Positions 4,601 through 61,669 of a stretch of DNA of 64,000 nt are shown here, one piece after another. The stretch's first letter is position 1. Each line of letters opens with the position of its first letter. The notes under the pieces were generated by a model that was given only the letters and a program-made list of their open reading frames with translations, was not told where the DNA came from and searched no databases. The position numbers and the translations under genes were made by a program. Source of the DNA: Candidatus Micrarchaeota archaeon (lineage in GTDB: Archaea > Micrarchaeota > Micrarchaeia > Anstonellales > Bilamarchaeaceae). The stretch is from NCBI GenBank assembly GCA_038046765.1, contig JBBSVN010000011.1, positions 1,152 through 65,151 on the forward strand, written 5' to 3'.

Positions 4601-5717
4601 TTGTAGCAGACTTTAAACTCCGGTAAGCTTCGGACGCTTTAATTTCTCTAGCTAAACGAATATCTATTGCTTCGCCATTTGTTTTCCAAAGCGATGCATT
4701 ATCTTCACGTTCAACATTTGTTTTTGCGCTTCTAGCAGTTTGGAAATTTTCAAAAGTACTAAGTGTTGCCTGATACAATACTGCGCGATCCTTTTCGCTA
4801 TCAACAAGAAGATGCGTGTCCTTTACTCTTTCAAAAGTTTTATTTGCGCTTTCAATTTGATTTGCCAAACTAGTTCCAATTTCTTTTCCTTTTGCAAGTG
4901 CGATTAAATACTGTGCCTGAATTTTACAAACTTGTTCTAGATTGATTCCGCCCATTCCATTTTCCAGGATTTTTTCATCTCGCGAAAAGCCATAAGCTAA
5001 ATTTGTAAATGCCTTTGTTATTCTCTGCTCTAAATCTTTTGAAGCATCTGGTACGTAATCAAGAGCGTGGTCTGCAACCATCCGAAAATCAATTGAAACT
5101 CCTTTGAAATAATCTTCTCTTTTCCTTCGTTCAACACTAGATAAAATTCCAGACCAGCGCTCACTTCCCTGAACTTGCAATGCAATATTTTCTACCTCCG
5201 TGCTTTTTGAAATTGCAGCTATTGCAACGCTCCAAGCTGTTGTGTGAAGGACATATTCATCTTTGGTTTTGTCAAAACCCTTATCTCGTACCTGTGCAAC
5301 CTGTCCCTGCGCGTCTTTTATTATTTTATCAAGAAGGGCAATTGATGCAGGATTACTTGTAGCAGATTTCATTTTGGTTGCTTGGTCAATGTAGCCTTGG
5401 GCATTTTGAGTAACGCGAGTAATTGCTGCCGAGTTTATTCCTGCCTGCATTTCTACTCTTAACGCTGCTGTCTTTTCTATAGCTGATTTTGTAATCTCAT
5501 CTGCTTTTTGTATATTTCCTTTTTTATAAAAAGCTAATGCGTTTTCCAATTGACTGCGTAACTCTTGCACTGGTTTAGAAACGCCATTTAATTCACCTAA
5601 TGCTTTAGATACGAATGCGATTTTTTGTTTTAATACCTGTTCATTTGCATTTGCAAGTTTGAAGCTAGGCTTATTAACAGTTAAATCTTCGCCTTCTCCG
5701 ACTTGCCTTAAAACCAA
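1644..5717 (-). CDS. Giant (1357 aa) multi-domain protein of unknown function
   Basis: Single uninterrupted ORF with an apparent TTG start. Order: helical Q/A/K-rich N-terminus, Gly/Ala-rich hydrophobic segment (aa ~373-476), two copies of a ~60-aa helical module (aa ~745-806 and ~865-926), C-terminal globular region with LWDGHELN and GRIDLDSAGH motifs. No N-terminal signal peptide. Confidence 0.8.
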   Translation of the reverse strand: MVLRQVGEGEDLTVNKPSFKLANANEQVLKQKIAFVSKALGELNGVSKPVQELRSQLENALAFYKKGNIQKADEITKSAIEKTAALRVEMQAGINSAAITRVTQNAQGYIDQATKMKSATSNPASIALLDKIIKDAQGQVAQVRDKGFDKTKDEYVLHTTAWSVAIAAISKSTEVENIALQVQGSERWSGILSSVERRKREDYFKGVSIDFRMVADHALDYVPDASKDLEQRITKAFTNLAYGFSRDEKILENGMGGINLEQVCKIQAQYLIALAKGKEIGTSLANQIESANKTFERVKDTHLLVDSEKDRAVLYQATLSTFENFQTARSAKTNVEREDNASLWKTNGEAIDIRLAREIKASEAYRSLKSATTTVLSMAFPVYGLATSAEGLAAQYDTTGKVRAIDVALFGAGLATPGIGKLANLGIKGAKTLEGVVGVGSLAAGTVVGLKDAVEAYEAGHGFDAIIGAFSTLQPLGHPARAAFKTATSEGAKGVYKKVGGKLKAVAGDERGSATLGAVFEPTVIEPTLRPDAATSNEPRLSASVKDKAKPILLTRSEFEKRVGSLPEELQKRMREHFTRPPDTIAFENALIIFDLRKQEVTGSFRDMIKSESMDGNARSDRLAVNGYYDPQTGKILAFGNPQSLSSQIIEKGKPFTILLDIRESGKIIEVIGAPKMAGLEGLKVTEGLNPFLRKIRGIPEPEQTIVDTPKRNIEEPTKAPVLHVVEEVKVNLIVGIFAPEVRLREFKKFLELSPEQQQTEVAKLRKSGNEIGARKLETYISNFGKMIKLADEHGVSRSELIGMYEDVGVVSSEKIRQKSKFDDATRDTAAPEGKVIELTAHERLSYEFADDYKKASNNVEKVALLRKFLELPVEERTAILAELDKRQEIMTASLLAADGQTYLKLEKIAAKVGISEIEFVEFYEDYMGKGITENFHKLIEGKLGFKIIAGEESTSKILDFSTNGKLSDHVSTGAIEGIPAQSRIESIASLGGLTGAYEIKIITPEGKIKSLFLKTMDLTADELGSIGAKTAGIPAPKVITKAGGKALEFTSEGRKTKYGLMESMQDFEGSLVLEGKKIQVKTASASNITSMHDEPILKYILEEHPDLFWQEMGYAQTGSLASGLWDGHELNLWAMMLEVSPSDATFLESKGRTTFTDATGRKMIFKFGRIDLDSAGHFQSVKQYDGSHDFSAMVKWSAKGDMHRIFDRIAKTTNSSIPQVMAFATEHIKEGAKKWYDSIGKTGSFASGMARKFQEHDGKPVSIGLEKILTPEQKALIEAGEKVYRDEVEINNANFGMPINGNPRTSVDYVDGRTKFVAREGVEAFYQFLGRISKGSGGQLWNDILSKVPQHLIEED

Positions 5718-11096: not shown

Positions 11097-12401
11097 TTAT
11101 TTTTCCAAAATCCATTTCCAGACTGGCATTATTTTTATCTTTTTATAATCAGCCCATTTTCCTAGTGGCACATCTTTTGTATACTGGTCTTTGGTTAGAA
11201 TGATGCCATTTTCGATGTTAAGTTCATTCATAGCGTTATTTAATCCCTTAAATTCTCTATCAATATTTTTCTCATCAAGTTTATAACAAACTTGTATTGC
11301 TAGTTCAGCTTTGCCTTTTTTAGAAACTATAAAATCGCACTCCTCTTCATTTTTTGATTTATAATAATTTATGCCTTTATTTTCAATTTCATTTTGTCTT
11401 CTAAATAACTCTAAGAAAACAACATTTTCCAGTATTCTGCCCTGATCTTCTGATTCTTTAGATAGAAAATGAATATATCCTGTATCAAACAAGTATACTT
11501 TTGACTTTGATAATTCGCTTTTTTTGAATGATTTTGAACTTTGTTTAACATACGCAATCATGAAAACATCTTCAAGAGATTTTAAAATCAAATACAAATC
11601 CTCAAGGCTATAAGGTATTTTATTAGATTTAAGATAATTTTCAAATGCAGAAACAGAAAATGTATTGCCAAAGAGATTTAGCATATACTTAATCGTAATC
11701 TCAACTAATTTTATGTTTTTTATTTTGAGTCTTTCAACAATGTCCTTGTAAAGAACTGAATCAAAATAGTTGTTTATAATTTTGTTTTTTAGTTCAAGTA
11801 CATCCGTAGTCGCAATTTCAGGAAAGCCCCCGTATTTAGTATATTCTTCAAAATGCTTTTTAATTTCAAAGACTTGGTCGGTTAATTCAAAATTTTTTCC
11901 AAGAGTTATACCTTTATATTTTAAGTATTCAGAAAATGAAAAAGGTAGAAGCAGATACGGCAATGCCTTTCCTCTAAGAGACGTTGCAATTTCCCTGCTT
12001 AAAAGTTTGGAGTTAGATCCAGTAACCGTAACTTTATATCCTTCGTTTAAAAGAGAAACGATAAAATTTTCCCATCCTGAAACAACCTGTATTTCATCAA
12101 AGAAAAAGATTAATTTTTCTTTTGAAAAGAGCTCTTTAGACAACTCTAGTATTTTTATTAGATCTGCATTAGTTAGTTCAGTTAACAAATGATCTTCAAA
12201 ATTTACTAACACCCAGTCCTTATCTTTACTCTTGCTTATCAAATAGTATAAATAAAATGTTTTACCAGCTCGTCTTGGACCTATTATCACATTTGCTTTT
12301 TTAAGGTCAGTTTCATACACTTGCAGGTCTCGTACAAATATTTGCTGCGGCAATAACTCCCGATATTTGAGAATTACTTTTTTTATGTTATCAATGTCCA
12401 T
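11097..12401 (-). CDS. AAA+ ATPase with C-terminal nuclease-like domain (AAA_14 + DUF4143 / COG1373 type)
   Basis: Walker A IIGPRRAGKT and Walker B LIFFFDEIQ. C-terminal EECDFIVS...LAIQV resembles a PD-(D/E)xK-like core. Paralog at 57339-58547. Confidence 0.7.
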   Translation of the reverse strand: MDIDNIKKVILKYRELLPQQIFVRDLQVYETDLKKANVIIGPRRAGKTFYLYYLISKSKDKDWVLVNFEDHLLTELTNADLIKILELSKELFSKEKLIFFFDEIQVVSGWENFIVSLLNEGYKVTVTGSNSKLLSREIATSLRGKALPYLLLPFSFSEYLKYKGITLGKNFELTDQVFEIKKHFEEYTKYGGFPEIATTDVLELKNKIINNYFDSVLYKDIVERLKIKNIKLVEITIKYMLNLFGNTFSVSAFENYLKSNKIPYSLEDLYLILKSLEDVFMIAYVKQSSKSFKKSELSKSKVYLFDTGYIHFLSKESEDQGRILENVVFLELFRRQNEIENKGINYYKSKNEEECDFIVSKKGKAELAIQVCYKLDEKNIDREFKGLNNAMNELNIENGIILTKDQYTKDVPLGKWADYKKIKIMPVWKWILEK

Positions 12402-55641: not shown

Positions 55642-56382
55642 ATGATTCCCGAGCTTGCAGAGCTACTTAAAACATCAATTGAACAATCTTTGGAAGATAA
55701 AGTTGCCGTTGCTTTTTCTGGAGGCGTTGATAGTTCTTTAATTGCATACGTTGCAAAACAGAATTGCGAAGTAGGTCTTTTTACCTGCGGAACTCCTATT
55801 AGTGAAGATTTAGTTTACGCAGAGCGTGTAGCCTCTGCTATGAAACTACCTCTAAATAAACATATTTTTGAAGATTCACAAATACTTGGGATTTATGAAA
55901 AATGTCAAAAAATATGTCCTGGTGATTTACTTAAGGTTGAACTTTTAGTTCCTGTTTATAAAGTTTGTGAAATGGCAAAAGAAAAAGGATTTACGACTAT
56001 GCTTTTTGGTTCGGCAAGTGAAGAATTATTTGTTGGATATGAACGATATTATACTTATCTTGCAGAAGGAAAAGATTTAGATGCCATTTTAAAAGATGAA
56101 TATAAAACGCTAAAGAGCAGGGACATGAATGCTACTGAAAGAGTATGTCGTTATTTTGGAATTAAAGCTCGTTTTCCATTTTATAATAAAGATTTAGCTG
56201 ATTTTGTTTTTGCTGTTCCGCTTGAACTTCGTATGGAAGATCGTGAGTTAAAAAAAGGTTTAATTAGAGAGGCATCAAAATTGCTTGGTCTAACAGAAAT
56301 TGCGATAAATCGAAAGAAAAGAGCAATGCAGTATGGGAGCGGTATTCATAAGGTATTACTTAGGCATGAACGGAGTTTTTGA
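55642..56382 (+). CDS. PP-loop ATP pyrophosphatase (asparagine-synthase-C-terminal-domain-like)
   Basis: VAVAFSGGVDSSLIA (SGGxDS PP-loop). No glutaminase domain. Confidence 0.7.
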   Translation: MIPELAELLKTSIEQSLEDKVAVAFSGGVDSSLIAYVAKQNCEVGLFTCGTPISEDLVYAERVASAMKLPLNKHIFEDSQILGIYEKCQKICPGDLLKVELLVPVYKVCEMAKEKGFTTMLFGSASEELFVGYERYYTYLAEGKDLDAILKDEYKTLKSRDMNATERVCRYFGIKARFPFYNKDLADFVFAVPLELRMEDRELKKGLIREASKLLGLTEIAINRKKRAMQYGSGIHKVLLRHERSF

Positions 56383-56442: not shown

Positions 56443-57261
56443 ATGGAACCAAAAACTAAAACACCTTCAAAGCTAGTTATTCCTGTTACGCGTACTGTTG
56501 CAGAACGCATTGGTGCTACTGCTTTTGCTGATAGTTTTGTTGTTGGATTACTCGAAGGAATAGAGCGTAGAGTTGCAAAAGGCGAATCAGAAGAACTTGT
56601 TATTAGCGAAACCCATGAAAGATTACGTGCATTTGGGCGTGGAATAGTAACTGGTGAATTAACTACAATGTCCTTAGGTTATAGTGTTGCACAAGTTCCA
56701 AAAGAAAAAACTTTACAAGAGCGGACTTTGGAAAATTTACGATTGTATTCTGTTGGTGTTGTTTGGGGAAAAATGCCTAAGGATAGGCTAGATTTTAGTG
56801 TAGTTTCTAGTTTTCTTGGAAGAGAAGTTCCACAAGAATTAATGGACGATTTTGGTAATCCTATAAATGTTAGAAATTATCATTACTCAGTTACACAACT
56901 AATATCTAATAAATTAAAAGAACGAGATCGTGGGGAATATCGTGGAGAAATTTTCTCTAAAAACACGGGATATGTAACCCTCCATCTCAATCCTTCTGGT
57001 GCGTTCTCATTATTTGGATTTCATGTTATGACTAATGTTCATGATCATTGCGGTAGACCAACTGACTTTACTGTTGCTATAAAATTAGATTCAAAATTCT
57101 TAAGAGATATTTTTGATTCAATACGAACAAATCCAAGATTTATCGAAGTTGTTTTCCATTTATTATTTCCTAACTTAGACATGGTTAAATTATTGATAAA
57201 AGATAAACTTGTTGTCTTATACGAAGACAATCGATTCGATTTAGTCTATCCAAACGTGTAA
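56443..57261 (+). CDS. Hypothetical protein (272 aa)
   Basis: ORF only. No recognisable motif. Confidence 0.45.
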   Translation: MEPKTKTPSKLVIPVTRTVAERIGATAFADSFVVGLLEGIERRVAKGESEELVISETHERLRAFGRGIVTGELTTMSLGYSVAQVPKEKTLQERTLENLRLYSVGVVWGKMPKDRLDFSVVSSFLGREVPQELMDDFGNPINVRNYHYSVTQLISNKLKERDRGEYRGEIFSKNTGYVTLHLNPSGAFSLFGFHVMTNVHDHCGRPTDFTVAIKLDSKFLRDIFDSIRTNPRFIEVVFHLLFPNLDMVKLLIKDKLVVLYEDNRFDLVYPNV

Positions 57262-57275
57262 TTATTTATCCAAAG

Positions 57276-57343
57276 TTTCTAACCTATAGTTCACAAATTC
57301 CTTAAAGTTTCTAACCTATAATAGAGAAACTATTTGAATTAGT
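57276..57343. repeat. Direct repeat R1 (68 nt) flanking the ATPase cassette
   Basis: The 35-nt core tttctaacctatagttcacaaattccttaaagttt (57276-57310) is identical to 58576-58610. The next ~33 nt are similar. It ends at the ATPase stop codon. Confidence 0.85.
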
Positions 57344-58547
57344 ATAAAAAACCAAAAAGATAAAGCGGAATCTCATTCTTTTCAATAGTCAAACTTTCTT
57401 TTACTAAATAAGCATTTTTCTTTCCTTTAAGCTGATCCCAGCCCTTGCTTGGTCCACCTATTTCGAATATGTAATTCCCTACTGCAAAATCAGGTGTTCT
57501 TCTCTCTGCTCCTGTTTTAATGTATTGTGCTTCTTTAACGTGCTGGATAAAAAAATCCTCCCTCAACCCACCTTCAGAAGGTTTGATTCCATAGTTTTGA
57601 CAAAGTGCGCTTCTAAATGAGAGTGGCATTAGAATTTTATCCTCGCTTCTTATTACCTTATGTCCTGCGCCCTGGGGTGGAATTATATAAAGTAATCCTG
57701 CAAGTGACAATATGTTTACTGCTTCTTTTGTGAATTTTATACTTCTACCAATACTAGATGACAATCCAGAATAACTTAATTCCCCAGGCGAAGAAGTTGC
57801 TATAAATTTTATTATCTTAAAAGCAGCATCAATATAATGGATATCTATGCTATGAAGAATCTCTAAGTCATATCTGACTATTCGTTCAATTATGTTCATA
57901 TATACGTCTTGCCTGTTTTGAAAAAAACTTGCGGGCAGTCCGTGTTTGCTGATATACTCTTCGAAATCACTTTTATAAGCGATTACCCATTTTGACAATT
58001 CCTGCCTTTTCGTTTCATTTAGTATTTCTTCAATAGTTACCTTTTGTATGTGCTTTCCAGTTTTGAAAATTAGATACTCTCTAAATGAAAGCGGTCTGAT
58101 TTCAAATAACATTGCACGCCTTGAGAGTTCTGAACCCCTTGTTCGAAGTGCTGCTGCTGAAGAGCCTGTTAAAACTAATTTTGTCGTTGTCTGATCATAA
58201 AATATTTTAGCGTCCTTTTCCCAGTTCGGTATCGCATGTACTTCATCTACTAATATTAATTTATATCCAATTTTATCACAATAGTTTAATATCTCTAGAA
58301 AATCTACGGCGTATTTAAGTATCACATCTCCACTCAAATAAATTGAATTATTTGTAATTTTTGAAAGTCTAACTAGAATTGTTGTTTTTCCAACTCCGCG
58401 AAGCCCATGAATAACAAATAGTCCGCTATTATTTTGAGATATTTTTTCAACTATTTCTGCGCTACTTTCCCTTATCTTTTCTATCTGGGCTTTTTCTGCT
58501 ATTTTAGAAGATGCAGCAACTATGTTTGAAAATATAAATTCGTCCAT
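57339..58547 (-). CDS. AAA+ ATPase with C-terminal nuclease-like domain (AAA_14 + DUF4143 type), paralog of 11097-12401
   Basis: Walker A IHGLRGVGKTT and Walker B LILVDEVH. C-terminal RRTPDFAV...IFEIGGPSK resembles a PD-(D/E)xK-like core. Confidence 0.7.
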   Translation of the reverse strand: MDEFIFSNIVAASSKIAEKAQIEKIRESSAEIVEKISQNNSGLFVIHGLRGVGKTTILVRLSKITNNSIYLSGDVILKYAVDFLEILNYCDKIGYKLILVDEVHAIPNWEKDAKIFYDQTTTKLVLTGSSAAALRTRGSELSRRAMLFEIRPLSFREYLIFKTGKHIQKVTIEEILNETKRQELSKWVIAYKSDFEEYISKHGLPASFFQNRQDVYMNIIERIVRYDLEILHSIDIHYIDAAFKIIKFIATSSPGELSYSGLSSSIGRSIKFTKEAVNILSLAGLLYIIPPQGAGHKVIRSEDKILMPLSFRSALCQNYGIKPSEGGLREDFFIQHVKEAQYIKTGAERRTPDFAVGNYIFEIGGPSKGWDQLKGKKNAYLVKESLTIEKNEIPLYLFGFLY

Positions 58548-58575
58548 ATCTATAATTAGAACCGAAACCTTTAAA

Positions 58576-58643
58576 TTTCTAACCTATAGTTCACAAATTC
58601 CTTAAAGTTTGTAACATTTAGTAGAGAAATTATTCAGATCAGT
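58576..58643. repeat. Direct repeat R2 (68 nt)
   Basis: See R1. It ends at the stop codon of the FlaI-like ATPase gene. Confidence 0.85.
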
Positions 58644-60936
58644 CTTTCTCCTTAGGATTCTCCCTTAATCTTCTAGCTTCTAGTTCCTCCTTAATTATGT
58701 CCTTAAACATCGGTTCCCATTTCTTCCACGCGTCTTTAAAGTCGATTTGTCCATGATCCTTTTCTAAACTAGCTAAAAGTTTGTTGGCATAAGAATTGCA
58801 TTTAAGTACAAAATCAAGTTCAAGAAGTATTTTGTCTTTCATTTCCTTACTTGCAATATAAATATCATAGTACATTTTTCCCTTGAAAAATGCCTGCATT
58901 ATGTATTGCTCCGGTGAAATTCCTGTTTCTTCACTTCTTCTTAAAAGTGCGGGAGGTACAAATGCAATGTCCAAATCTTTTTGTAATTTTCCAATGTCAA
59001 CTTTACTAAAATCAGTCATGCTTGCTTCGGGGTTACGAAGGAACTTACACTCTGTTTGACAGCTATCAATATCCTCGCCTCGTCTAAATCTAAATGTTTC
59101 AGTAAACTTTTTCTCTTCAATGTCACTTTGGTATTCATAACCTAGTACTCTGTAAACTCTTCCTCGTCTTCCGAACCTAAGTTTCTTTAAGAAAGTATAT
59201 CTATCCGTTGCATACATACTTGCTGCAGGAATTCCAAAGACTAATTCTAATCTATCTTGTACATCTCGCAGCGATTCGGCGTGCAAATTGTAAAGCAGGA
59301 AAACCCCTGGTTGAGTATTAAGAAGGTTAATTATACCTTGGACTCCTGATCTGGATCGAACTTCGTTTATAATTAATGCCGCGTCTCCCATCCTTAATAA
59401 TACGTTCGCCATTGTAACTAGGTCAAGTTCTGGTGTTATTACTCCTTCCTTTTCTGCGCCTCGAACTCTGGCGGCTCCAATGTGGAATCCTCTTTTTCTA
59501 AACGCCCGAACTGGTATTTCTTCAATGTCCTGAATCGGTAAAATCCTTTTCCTAGTTCCTATCGCAGAAATTTTTGCTGCAGTAAACATCGTCTTTCCGA
59601 CTCCTTTAAGTCCAAGCACTGCTTCGCTACAACCCAAACTTACTAGTACATCATCGTATCCAGCAAAAAATGGCGTGAAACTTCTTAATGATATATATTG
59701 CGGGTAAGTAAAAGGCTCTTCTTTCATTATTCTTAGCGCGCATTTTAATTCTTCGAATGTCGCTGGCGGTCTTTGTAAACTGCAACGCATGCTAAGCCTT
59801 TTTATTACTGTATCCATAAATGGGTTTGATTCATCAAACTTCTTTGTAGCTTTTGTTGTTAGCGTAATGTTCCTAAAAACTCGTTCTAATAATTCCCGGT
59901 TATATCGATATAATGTATGGCAAAGCCCAAACTTAGCGTGTTCAATATATATCGGCGAGTTTTCACTATCTATATAAATATCTGTAATGTTTTCCTTGTC
60001 AAGCGCGATATTTTCTATAAACGAACCAAAACCAACTACCCAGGATGCTGCTTCCCTACCCATTGCGAGGGCTTCTTTTGGTGTTATTGCAATTCCTTGT
60101 AAAACTGCCTGATCCAGAAAATAGTTTCGATACTCTCTGGTTTTTGCATCCATCAATATTTCCCATTCGACATTTTCAAAGGATTCTTTTATCTGTTCAT
60201 TTATTACTCGTTTTAGTAGCGCAATCAATTCTGGTTTTAAGCTTTCTATTACTGGATTCTTCTGTACGTACAAATATGCTTCTGCTCCAGGTATCTCATA
60301 AAGTTGAACACTTAAGTCAAATGGTAAATCGTAACTGGCCTCCGCAGTCTTAATTTTTTGTGCAGTTGAAGGAATTTCTAATGAAATGGAACTGACAAAA
60401 AATAAGCTCTTTAAACCAGTTAGTGAAAGAAATGCCGCCCGCAAATCGCCTGTCTTTTTTACAAGAGTGTAAAGTTTTGCCCCAATAAATCTTTTTAATA
60501 TTCCGTTTACCCAAGCCTTAAATGTCTGGTAACCGTTCATATACAATGATTTCTCAGGTGGTTCTTCCTTATATGCTGCAAGATCTTTTTCTGCACCACT
60601 GGGGTTTACCATCATGTTCTCGTAAAATTTACGAATAAGTTTTCTTCTGTTTTCATATTGTGGATCTTGTTTTAACCCGTATATATCTTCTCTTAAAAGT
60701 AATAATTCGATTTGTTTAATTATCGCAGTATACTCTGTTAAAAAACTTGTTTTTTGTTCGTCAAGTTCTATTACTATTTCTTCCTCGTATCGGATTGTTT
60801 TTATGGGTACTTCCTGGGTTACTAAGTCCTTTAAGTGAGCGTTTAAAAATTCAGGTGATGCAAATTCGTAGGGGCACTTTGACAAATCAACTATTGCTCT
60901 GTTTCCTTCTAGATAAAGATTACACATAACTAGCAT
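58639..60936 (-). CDS. Divergent type II/IV secretion-family ATPase (FlaI/VirB11/PilB-like) with long N- and C-terminal extensions
   Basis: Walker A GLKGVGKTMF, Walker B-like DAALIINEVRS, His-box-like LLYNLHAES. 765 aa, with ~430 aa before the P-loop. Confidence 0.65.
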   Translation of the reverse strand: MLVMCNLYLEGNRAIVDLSKCPYEFASPEFLNAHLKDLVTQEVPIKTIRYEEEIVIELDEQKTSFLTEYTAIIKQIELLLLREDIYGLKQDPQYENRRKLIRKFYENMMVNPSGAEKDLAAYKEEPPEKSLYMNGYQTFKAWVNGILKRFIGAKLYTLVKKTGDLRAAFLSLTGLKSLFFVSSISLEIPSTAQKIKTAEASYDLPFDLSVQLYEIPGAEAYLYVQKNPVIESLKPELIALLKRVINEQIKESFENVEWEILMDAKTREYRNYFLDQAVLQGIAITPKEALAMGREAASWVVGFGSFIENIALDKENITDIYIDSENSPIYIEHAKFGLCHTLYRYNRELLERVFRNITLTTKATKKFDESNPFMDTVIKRLSMRCSLQRPPATFEELKCALRIMKEEPFTYPQYISLRSFTPFFAGYDDVLVSLGCSEAVLGLKGVGKTMFTAAKISAIGTRKRILPIQDIEEIPVRAFRKRGFHIGAARVRGAEKEGVITPELDLVTMANVLLRMGDAALIINEVRSRSGVQGIINLLNTQPGVFLLYNLHAESLRDVQDRLELVFGIPAASMYATDRYTFLKKLRFGRRGRVYRVLGYEYQSDIEEKKFTETFRFRRGEDIDSCQTECKFLRNPEASMTDFSKVDIGKLQKDLDIAFVPPALLRRSEETGISPEQYIMQAFFKGKMYYDIYIASKEMKDKILLELDFVLKCNSYANKLLASLEKDHGQIDFKDAWKKWEPMFKDIIKEELEARRLRENPKEKD

Positions 60937-60991: not shown

Positions 60992-61669
60992 CTACTTGGT
61001 ACAATTTGGATAAAATCCGGTAGTTTTTTCTGACATAAAAAGTTCTGCCATGAAAGGTAGCTTACAGGATGAAGTCAACATCACAGTGTCTTCATTTGCT
61101 GAGCGCTCAAATTCGACTGGTACGACTATATGGCTAGCGTCGTCTTCTAAAAATTCCATGTGCATATAAAATGGCTGGTTATATTTTACAATCTTATATT
61201 CAGTGTCAAATTCATTTGCTATTTTTATGTAAAATCCGTCTTCTAGCTTCGTCATATGCTTCGGTATGTCAATTATGCTGGTTTTATAATCATCAAAATC
61301 AAAAGTAAAATTTTCCCGGCTAAAAGAAGTTCCTCTTTGCAGTTCATATCTTACTTCGGGTACTTTTGCGTCTGCAAAAATATTCTCTTTTATTTCTGCT
61401 TCCTGCAGCATTGTGAGTTTTTCCCTAAGTTCTTGTCTATTTTTCCAAAAGTTTTCAAATTTCTTTTTACTTTCGTTTGCTTTACTTGCAGCTGTTTGCG
61501 AAGTTTTTAAACTAAATGTTGCATTTGTTTTAATAATCTCATCTTTGCATGGTCTAATTGAAAATCCAAAAACAGCAAGACTGGCAACTAGAGGTAGCAT
61601 GTACCTAAACAATTTTTTTGACTTGCTTGGTTCGTTTTTAGCACTTCTTGTATTTTCCCTTTCTCTCAT
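60992..61669 (-). CDS. Hypothetical membrane-anchored protein
   Basis: N-terminal basic stretch plus the hydrophobic helix LFRYMLPLVASLAVFGFSI. Directly upstream of the ATPase on the same strand. Confidence 0.45.
   Translation of the reverse strand: MRERENTRSAKNEPSKSKKLFRYMLPLVASLAVFGFSIRPCKDEIIKTNATFSLKTSQTAASKANESKKKFENFWKNRQELREKLTMLQEAEIKENIFADAKVPEVRYELQRGTSFSRENFTFDFDDYKTSIIDIPKHMTKLEDGFYIKIANEFDTEYKIVKYNQPFYMHMEFLEDDASHIVVPVEFERSANEDTVMLTSSCKLPFMAELFMSEKTTGFYPNCTK

Follow-up and report, generated by a model that had tools for sequence, protein, structure and literature searches.

PDC-S01, in which an ATPase is fused to a PD-(D/E)xK domain, is a candidate defence system that has not been validated; it reportedly ranks fourth among the defence candidates of prokaryotes in frequency and is enriched in Archaea (PMC12988326). 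DUF4143 was assigned to PD-(D/E)xK (PMC3424549). No operators or flanking repeats were found described in the literature searched on DUF4143, COG1373 and PDC-S01. Here, an ATPase gene related to this group was analysed in a Candidatus Micrarchaeota archaeon, in which it lies between two direct repeats, R1 and R2. The locus is part of a stretch of 64,000 nucleotides (nt), called the window below (GenBank assembly GCA_038046765.1, contig JBBSVN010000011.1, positions 1,152 to 65,151 of the forward strand), and coordinates without a contig name refer to this window. The ATPase matches PDC-S01 models but belongs to a divergent clade.

The locus was compared with further described systems. In bacteriophage lambda, the CI repressor gene lies between OL and OR, clusters of adjacent palindromic operators that are connected by a long-range loop. 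The likeness consists in a putative regulator gene between two palindromic operator clusters 1.3–2.4 kb apart, one of which overlaps the gene's own promoter; at the present locus, however, the clusters are near-exact direct duplicates including their spacers, the protein is an AAA+ ATPase-nuclease instead of a small repressor, and the loop is putative. Restriction–modification genes were reportedly described by Nobusato in 2000 to insert with long target duplication. In such insertions the repeat is target sequence, which is found as a single copy in the empty site (Furuta 2010, PMC2853133). A defence-type gene, the lack of a mobility gene and genome-unique direct repeats of more than 30 bp are common to both cases, but the repeat studied here travels with the gene as its predicted operator and does not appear to be target-derived.

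Orc1/Cdc6 with its origin recognition boxes (ORB) and the iteron–rep–iteron replicons (P1, F) are comparable in AAA+, lid and winged helix, and in repeated sites that flank or adjoin the gene of the binder; the units described here differ by an extra nuclease-like domain, by palindromic sites and by their occurrence as many units per genome. Long terminal repeats (LTR), solo-LTRs and integrase-less, att-flanked cis-mobilisable elements (CIME) resemble them in that direct repeats bound a unit, and gene-less arrays could be products of repeat-by-repeat deletion; the present units contain neither reverse transcriptase nor integrase, and their repeats are 40–90 nt of predicted protein-binding palindromes. 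The integrase or recombinase of an integrative element with attL and attR is missing from the unit, as are the attC sites and the IntI-adjacent array of integron cassettes; the cassettes are dispersed singly among housekeeping genes, each with a repeat of its own.

Repeat pair at the locus

The AAA_14 ATPase gene (57339..58547, minus strand, 402 amino acids (aa); identified by open reading frame (ORF), Pfam, PADLOC PDC-S01 and AlphaFold model) is preceded by R2 (58573..58643, minus strand) and followed by R1 (57273..57343, minus strand). Both copies were delimited by repeat search and by reading of the sequence. In the repeat search of the window they formed a single family of 71 nt with 86 % identity and a start-to-start distance of exactly 1300 nt. 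The perfect 35-mer common to both (57276–57310 = 58576–58610), which had been recognised in the initial annotation together with its extension by mismatched positions, matched the window twice when up to three mismatches were allowed, versus no match in 100 shuffles. R1 and R2 are the only copies in the whole assembly (1.5 Mb, 20 contigs), so the objection that the 35-mer might be a common terminator fails.

R1 overlaps the stop codon of the ATPase gene and R2 that of a FlaI-like gene, which is also encoded on the minus strand. The annotation had let the repeat end at these two stop codons; the overlap is correct, but the high identity stops at 57334 and 58634, and the final 9 nt, up to both stop codons, match weakly. 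The strongly matching part of R1 (57273–57334) begins 4 nt past the ATPase stop codon; that of R2 (58573–58634) ends 25 nt before the ATPase ATG, and the far end of R2 overlaps the FlaI-like stop. Each repeat contains two imperfect 22-nt palindromes, 32 nt apart (R2, 58576–58597 and 58608–58629; R1, 57276–57297 and 57308–57329). The internal duplication noticed earlier in R1 is real and corresponds to the left half of the two R1 sites. A TATA-like element, read from the sequence as AAATTTAAAGG in gene sense (58566..58577, minus strand), directly follows the proximal palindrome of R2 and is located ∼20–30 nt before the ATG, a position that would fit a leaderless archaeal mRNA.

The RNA fold energy of R at the locus was no better than that of shuffles (z = −1.36), and folds differed across family members (z from +0.56 to −4.1). 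RNA folding is inconsistent over the family; the common denominator is a set of putative dyad-symmetric, double-stranded binding sites and not a hairpin.

The same repeat–gene–repeat order was found in L075, an independent long-read assembly of the same population (99.07 % identity, 84 indels), which excludes an assembly artefact. L075, the only near-identical sequence found and one built from error-prone reads, contained no empty site. Its collinearity with the window ends at window position 61556, and for the final 2.7 kb (L075:1-2726) no match exists in the assembly, so that a structural variant or a chimeric end of the contig is suspected. Logan contigs of ERR3858128 break within the perfect 35-mer; this is an expected effect of the assembler and was regarded as uninformative on circles.

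Recurrence and conservation of the repeat–gene–repeat layout

The upstream flank was aligned to the downstream flank of every ATPase homologue in the genome by using the Smith–Waterman algorithm and shuffled controls. Direct repeats of 39–91 nt, ∼86–98 % identical, were found around 8 of the 11 AAA_14 paralogues; the pairs scored 30–63.5 against a shuffle maximum of ∼17. Each flanked paralogue has a repeat sequence of its own, different from the others. As a control, all 1166 ORFs of at least 150 aa in the genome were treated in the same way, and 14 scored above 20: these eight ATPases, three members of a SLFN_AlbA_2 family and three further ORFs. The last three were set aside; the repeats of two hold a ribosome-binding site and start codon (paralogous gene starts), that of the third is a promoter-like AT-rich stretch, and the paired-palindrome layout was present in none of them. 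A strict genome-wide scan for palindrome pairs gave five clusters only and was not used, the thresholds being too strict to list all operators.

Other genomes of the order, species-representative genomes and metagenome contigs show the layout as well. The annotation's view of the ATPase family as a cassette was borne out in so far as its members behave as discrete single-gene cassettes in unrelated neighbourhoods. In most cassettes the upstream copy ends ∼13–44 nt before the ATG, and the start of the downstream copy ranges from 30 nt before the ORF end to 35 nt past the stop codon; in a few looser cases the copies are found further out on either side. The repeat spacing is mostly 1240–1400 nt. 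Over the family loci tested, the flanking repeats were direct in 38 cases and inverted in two. Repeats of the AAA_14 subfamily consist of two imperfect palindromes (∼16–22 nt) at a centre-to-centre distance of 32–33 nt, or about three helical turns. The order site 1, spacer, site 2, TATA precedes every member of the orthologue clade that was read, including those without a downstream copy; the TATA-like box (ATATAAA or TTTAAAG) stands ∼25 nt before the ATG.

Flanking repeats were detected at only 1–2 of 30 loci of typical DUF4143 paralogues of genome G024, and rarely around bacterial homologues (4 of 42). The second paralogue in the window (11097–12401), to which the annotation had also pointed, is a typical PDC-S01/DUF4143 gene (PADLOC E = 1.2e-96, full length); it has no flanking repeat, its score of 10 being at chance level. 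The copy number of the AAA_14 ATPase varies from 0 to ∼40 per genome, even inside one genus: G024 (1.0 Mb) carries ∼40 AAA_14 genes, which account for ∼5 % of its DNA, and its congener G002 (0.9 Mb) has none that matches the ATPase at E ≤ 0.001.

The closest full-length homologues of the ATPase (∼64–66 % identical), on contigs L076 and L077, are located in unrelated neighbourhoods. The L076 orthologue adjoins T2SSF genes; on L077, the orthologue has FtsX-type permease genes on one side and an AbiEii gene on the other. Both are flanked by repeats with a spacing of 1290 and 1291 nt, respectively, that are homologous to R at the locus; R thus belongs to the gene and not to the target. This contradicts the proposal that the 3′ flank of the FlaI-like gene had been duplicated: the repeat is the upstream module of the ATPase gene, it is homologous at orthologues elsewhere, and nothing similar follows the FlaI-like gene in 19 relatives. 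L076 is a 9-kb metagenome contig with three AAA_14 genes in a row (L076:58-6263). The first and third have their own repeat pairs (58–95/1469–1506 and 4907–4973/6197–6263), the second has the upstream two-site element only (2868–2925), and a lone, gene-less two-site element is found at 4835–4888.

Comparison between genomes was used to delimit the conserved unit. For L027 and L088, identity is 79 % in the proteins, 38 % at third codon positions (saturated) and 42–43 % in the far flanks (random level); it reaches 75 % in the region with the downstream R, and ∼86 % was counted by eye inside R. For L036 and L074, the corresponding values are 60 % for the protein, 44 % for third positions and 43–45 % for the far flanks, with both R copies at ∼90 % (by eye). 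Since R identity is high against saturated third positions and random flanks, conservation ends at the outer R edges and both copies have been kept above neutral expectation. Within a genome the R copies are 95 % alike, versus 86 % for the same copy between species. Mismatches between upstream and downstream copies were modestly depleted in the palindrome arms (27/532 versus 57/529 outside; Fisher p = 6e-4). The observed arm/non-arm rate ratio was 0.47. When the bias that comes from choosing the arms was simulated, the null ratio averaged 0.91 and none of the 200 values fell below 0.47, which the smallest of them just reached; with arms picked from one copy alone, p = 0.04 and p = 0.003 were obtained.

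The R core (57273–57334; one palindrome plus the 10-nt spacer) best matches L077:5793-5847 in an orientation flipped relative to the gene (36/42, spacer 9/10). This apparent flip, which might reflect an inversion of the module or of the gene, was not counted as firm evidence, given that the sites are palindromes and that the layout read in gene sense fits the other clade members too.

The same repeat–gene–repeat geometry was found in a second, unrelated family of ∼420–440 aa with SLFN_AlbA_2, HATPase_c_4 and a C-terminal helix-turn-helix (HTH). Its repeats consist of tandem half-sites followed by their inverted copies, and no recognised recombinase or nuclease domain was found in the family. 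In the source genome (G000), three of five copies are repeat-flanked (L251:1418-2826, which equals C7:29648-31056; C4:139192-140641; C4:184263-185701). Loci of this type in relatives were scored as repeat-flanked in 10 of 24 and 13 of 26 cases, a few of these matches not being of this type.

Predicted protein fold, insertion status and neighbouring genes

Pfam AAA_14 (PF13173) covers residues 43–159 of the ATPase (E = 1.3e-22), with GLRGVGKTT as Walker A motif and invariant D101–E102. The earlier label of AAA+/DUF4143 needs correction in that Pfam DUF4143 (PF13635) was not detected in the protein at E up to 1; over its full length the 402-aa protein is nevertheless homologous to DUF4143-bearing proteins (PF13635 carriers align to residues ∼46–402). 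PADLOC PDC-S01 model PDLC04787 matches with E = 1.1e-21 and covers residues 36–291 only. In an alignment of 49 sequences, E330, D353 and E362 of the C-terminal alpha/beta domain are invariant and K368 is nearly so, a pattern that would fit the assignment of DUF4143 to PD-(D/E)xK (PMC3424549). The AlphaFold model computed from this alignment (predicted local distance difference test score (pLDDT) of 91) contains a winged helix followed by the alpha/beta domain. Its top PDB match by Foldseek was 2qby_A, Sulfolobus Orc1/Cdc6 bound to origin DNA (E = 6e-8), followed by CED-4, Apaf-1, Avs, ORC, RuvB, RFC and MuB. The TM-scores are low (0.30), and the likeness to Orc1/Cdc6 is therefore one of domain order (AAA+, lid, winged helix), not of orthology. 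The fold predicted for the protein thus combines AAA+, lid and winged helix in the manner of Orc1/Cdc6 and STAND proteins with a PD-(D/E)xK-like domain at the C-terminus.

The 1300-nt unit contains the ATPase ORF alone, and no integrase or recombinase is encoded in the unit or beside it. Upstream of the gene lies the T2SSE/FlaI-like ATPase gene (58639..60936, minus strand, 765 aa; ORF, Pfam), a conserved neighbour outside the cassette whose stop codon abuts R2; its orthologue is present as a single copy in each of 41 related genomes compared. On the other side, outside the repeat unit and between the cassette and an AsnS-like (Asn_synthase) gene (55642..56382, plus strand; ORF, Pfam), an orphan ORF of 272 aa was found (56443..57261, plus strand). 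Neither Pfam nor NCBIfam gave a match for it, and no homologue was present at the loci compared or in the rest of the genome.

The relatives with usable synteny all belong to other genera. In at least six of them, the AsnS-like and FlaI-like genes converge directly, with aligned ends ∼50–140 nt apart, from which it follows that the orphan ORF and the ATPase cassette are additions in this lineage; the direct convergence marks the ancestral, unoccupied arrangement. The orphan ORF is likewise missing from the same site in relatives and constitutes a second lineage-specific addition to the convergent gap. Of the single-gene insertion with target duplication that the annotation had proposed, the insertion is thus upheld, but the target duplication is not. 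Two other cassettes of the genome gave a like result: an AAA_14 cassette beside a HerA-like gene is missing at the same site in 22 of 22 relatives, and a SLFN-type cassette beside aCPSF1 in 29 of 29. Among these, 14 HerA-side and 13 aCPSF1-side loci with a downstream flank were examined; the next ORF follows mostly within ∼100 nt, and none of these unoccupied flanks contains a two-site element.

The search for an empty site gave a mixed result. No relative has an R-like sequence after the FlaI-like gene (0 of 19, relatives too distant for this test to decide alone), but the sister genus G004, the closest relative (FlaI-like protein 75 % identical), has no ATPase gene in its AsnS/FlaI gap of 410 nt and carries a lone array of two to three palindromic sites, TTTGTGCaCTTATAAGaGCA and TTTGTGCCCTTAAAAGGACA, ∼31 nt apart (L004:1279-1345 = G004:C44:38926-38990). 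After the array come a TATA-like box and a short ORF stub that begins with ATGGAT. The core TTTGTGCNNTTANAAG has three exact matches in the 1.6-Mb G004 genome, of which two are the gap sites and one, on contig C2, is site 1 of the operator that belongs to the clade member of G004 itself; because the core was derived from these three sites, the informative part is that there is no further exact match. A recent copy of the operator region as source of the array was rejected (alignment score 13 versus a shuffle maximum of 18), as only the site core is common. The G004 clade member belongs to a sister subclade without downstream copies; a direct repeat of 16–29 nt around the gene on G004:C2 was not used, its score of 13.5 falling within the shuffled-flank range of other loci. 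The array may be what is left of a lost cassette whose sites were preserved, or else a site that is bound in trans.

Proposed operator module and alternative explanations

On balance, we lean towards the reading that R1 and R2 are the cis module of the ATPase gene itself, in a horizontally acquired single-gene unit whose protein binds both flanks. It draws on the anatomy of the locus, the family-wide recurrence and paralogue specificity of the repeats, the conservation of both copies, the insertion status and the predicted fold, and on the occurrence of two or more adjacent palindromes on each side of the gene, one set at the promoter. The winged helix of the ATPase protein would recognise the palindromes as dimers. 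Occupancy of the proximal site would occlude the B recognition element (BRE) and TATA box and block TBP and TFB, resulting in autorepression. The downstream pair could serve as a second anchor for a loop across the 1.3-kb gene, as for lambda CI between OL and OR, or alternatively as a roadblock by which a newly arrived, potentially toxic gene would be shielded against transcription from its neighbours. The R sites are found nowhere else in the genome, so that no regulon is expected. The whole R–gene–R unit is a lineage-specific insertion; the second R copy would have arisen by a duplicating or integrating mechanism and would then have been kept by selection, gene conversion or both. The direct orientation, the copied spacers and the likeness within genomes point to a duplicating or integrating mechanism, to gene conversion, or to both.

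Several observations weigh against the operator module. The recognition of the sites by the protein is deduced from co-variation and position, and the depletion of mismatches in the arms is modest and partly biased by the choice of arms. A downstream copy is present in ∼20–65 % of loci of the archaeal samples and in none of the nearest sister subclade, and is thus not essential. A purely functional second operator would need neither copied spacers nor a constant direct orientation, which points to a mechanical origin. Finally, direct repeats invite deletion of the gene, a cost for which the operator model does not account.

A self-mobile element is a possible but rather doubtful explanation, and one compatible with the operator module, as operator and end functions could coexist. 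The ATPase-nuclease would bind the paired palindromes, and R × R excision would yield a 1.3-kb circle with one R that could re-insert, for instance through staggered nicks across the R of the circle and subsequent fill-in, so that direct copies of R are regenerated at both ends. The strong excess of direct over inverted repeats is in line with this, as are cross-genome conservation edges that coincide with the outer R edges next to far flanks at random level, the location of units in gaps that are mostly 0–100 nt long in relatives and contain no two-site element, and the patchy copy number even within a genus. The greater likeness of R copies within a genome than between species looks as if a single template had served to regenerate both; site arrays without a gene occur in G004 and L076, and nuclease-like residues are conserved. 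On the other hand, none of the genomes examined holds two near-identical cassettes and no R pair occurs twice, which gives no sign of bursts. Proteins identical to P0029 and P0058 gave no evidence of recent jumps; among the matches listed (8 and 5 places, respectively, from different samples) the context was the same throughout. Many family members expand without repeats, as in G024, the SLFN-type family lacks a recognised recombinase or nuclease domain, and no target-site duplication is visible outside R. On this view, R–gene–R would be a new class of minimal single-gene mobile elements, in which Orc/Cdc6-like PDC-S01 and, independently, Schlafen/AlbA_2-HATPase-HTH proteins would use a palindrome pair as operator and recombination end; this reading, too, is possible but rather doubtful.

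An integrated mini-replicon is very unlikely. The ATPase would be an Orc/Cdc6-like initiator, and R would provide iteron- or ORB-like origin and copy-control sites, as in P1 incC–repA–incA; the best structural match (Orc1/Cdc6 on origin DNA) and direct-orientation site clusters on both sides of the gene, of which the upstream one overlaps the promoter, agree with this. The sites, however, are palindromic, unlike the asymmetric iterons, and an AT-rich unwinding element was not identified; the 1.5-Mb genome contains at least eight units of this kind from the family, and the family is widespread in bacteria without repeats. We know of no free 1.3-kb circles.

Target duplication, by which the 3′ flank of the FlaI-like gene would have been the target and would have been duplicated on arrival of the ATPase gene, is largely refuted and has a slim chance at best. 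The locus bears the formal footprint of such events, namely a genome-unique direct repeat of more than 30 bp around a defence-type gene without a mobility gene (PMC2853133). Homologous repeats nevertheless flank orthologues beside unrelated genes, the repeat is the clade-wide operator-plus-TATA layout of the ATPase gene, and the 19 relatives, distant as they are, show nothing similar after the FlaI-like gene. A generic intergenic element, such as a terminator or RNA hairpin after both minus-strand genes, is refuted by the copy number of two in the genome and by the different repeat of each paralogue, and the RNA folds speak against it as well, even though both copies begin at stop codons and R can be drawn as one long imperfect hairpin.

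The operator module would give PDC-S01, for which no mechanism is known, a testable cis partner in the form of a paralogue-specific palindrome pair that travels with the gene, often on both sides. From the pair it is predicted that the winged helix binds DNA sequence-specifically and that a likely toxic nuclease keeps itself under tight control. The pair is also a handle for asking how single-gene cassettes without a recombinase spread between genomes. If the units should prove to be self-mobile, one of the commonest defence candidates of prokaryotes would be primarily, or also, a selfish element. As an unrelated family shares the architecture, regulator and effector genes that move horizontally in DPANN archaea may follow a general design rule.

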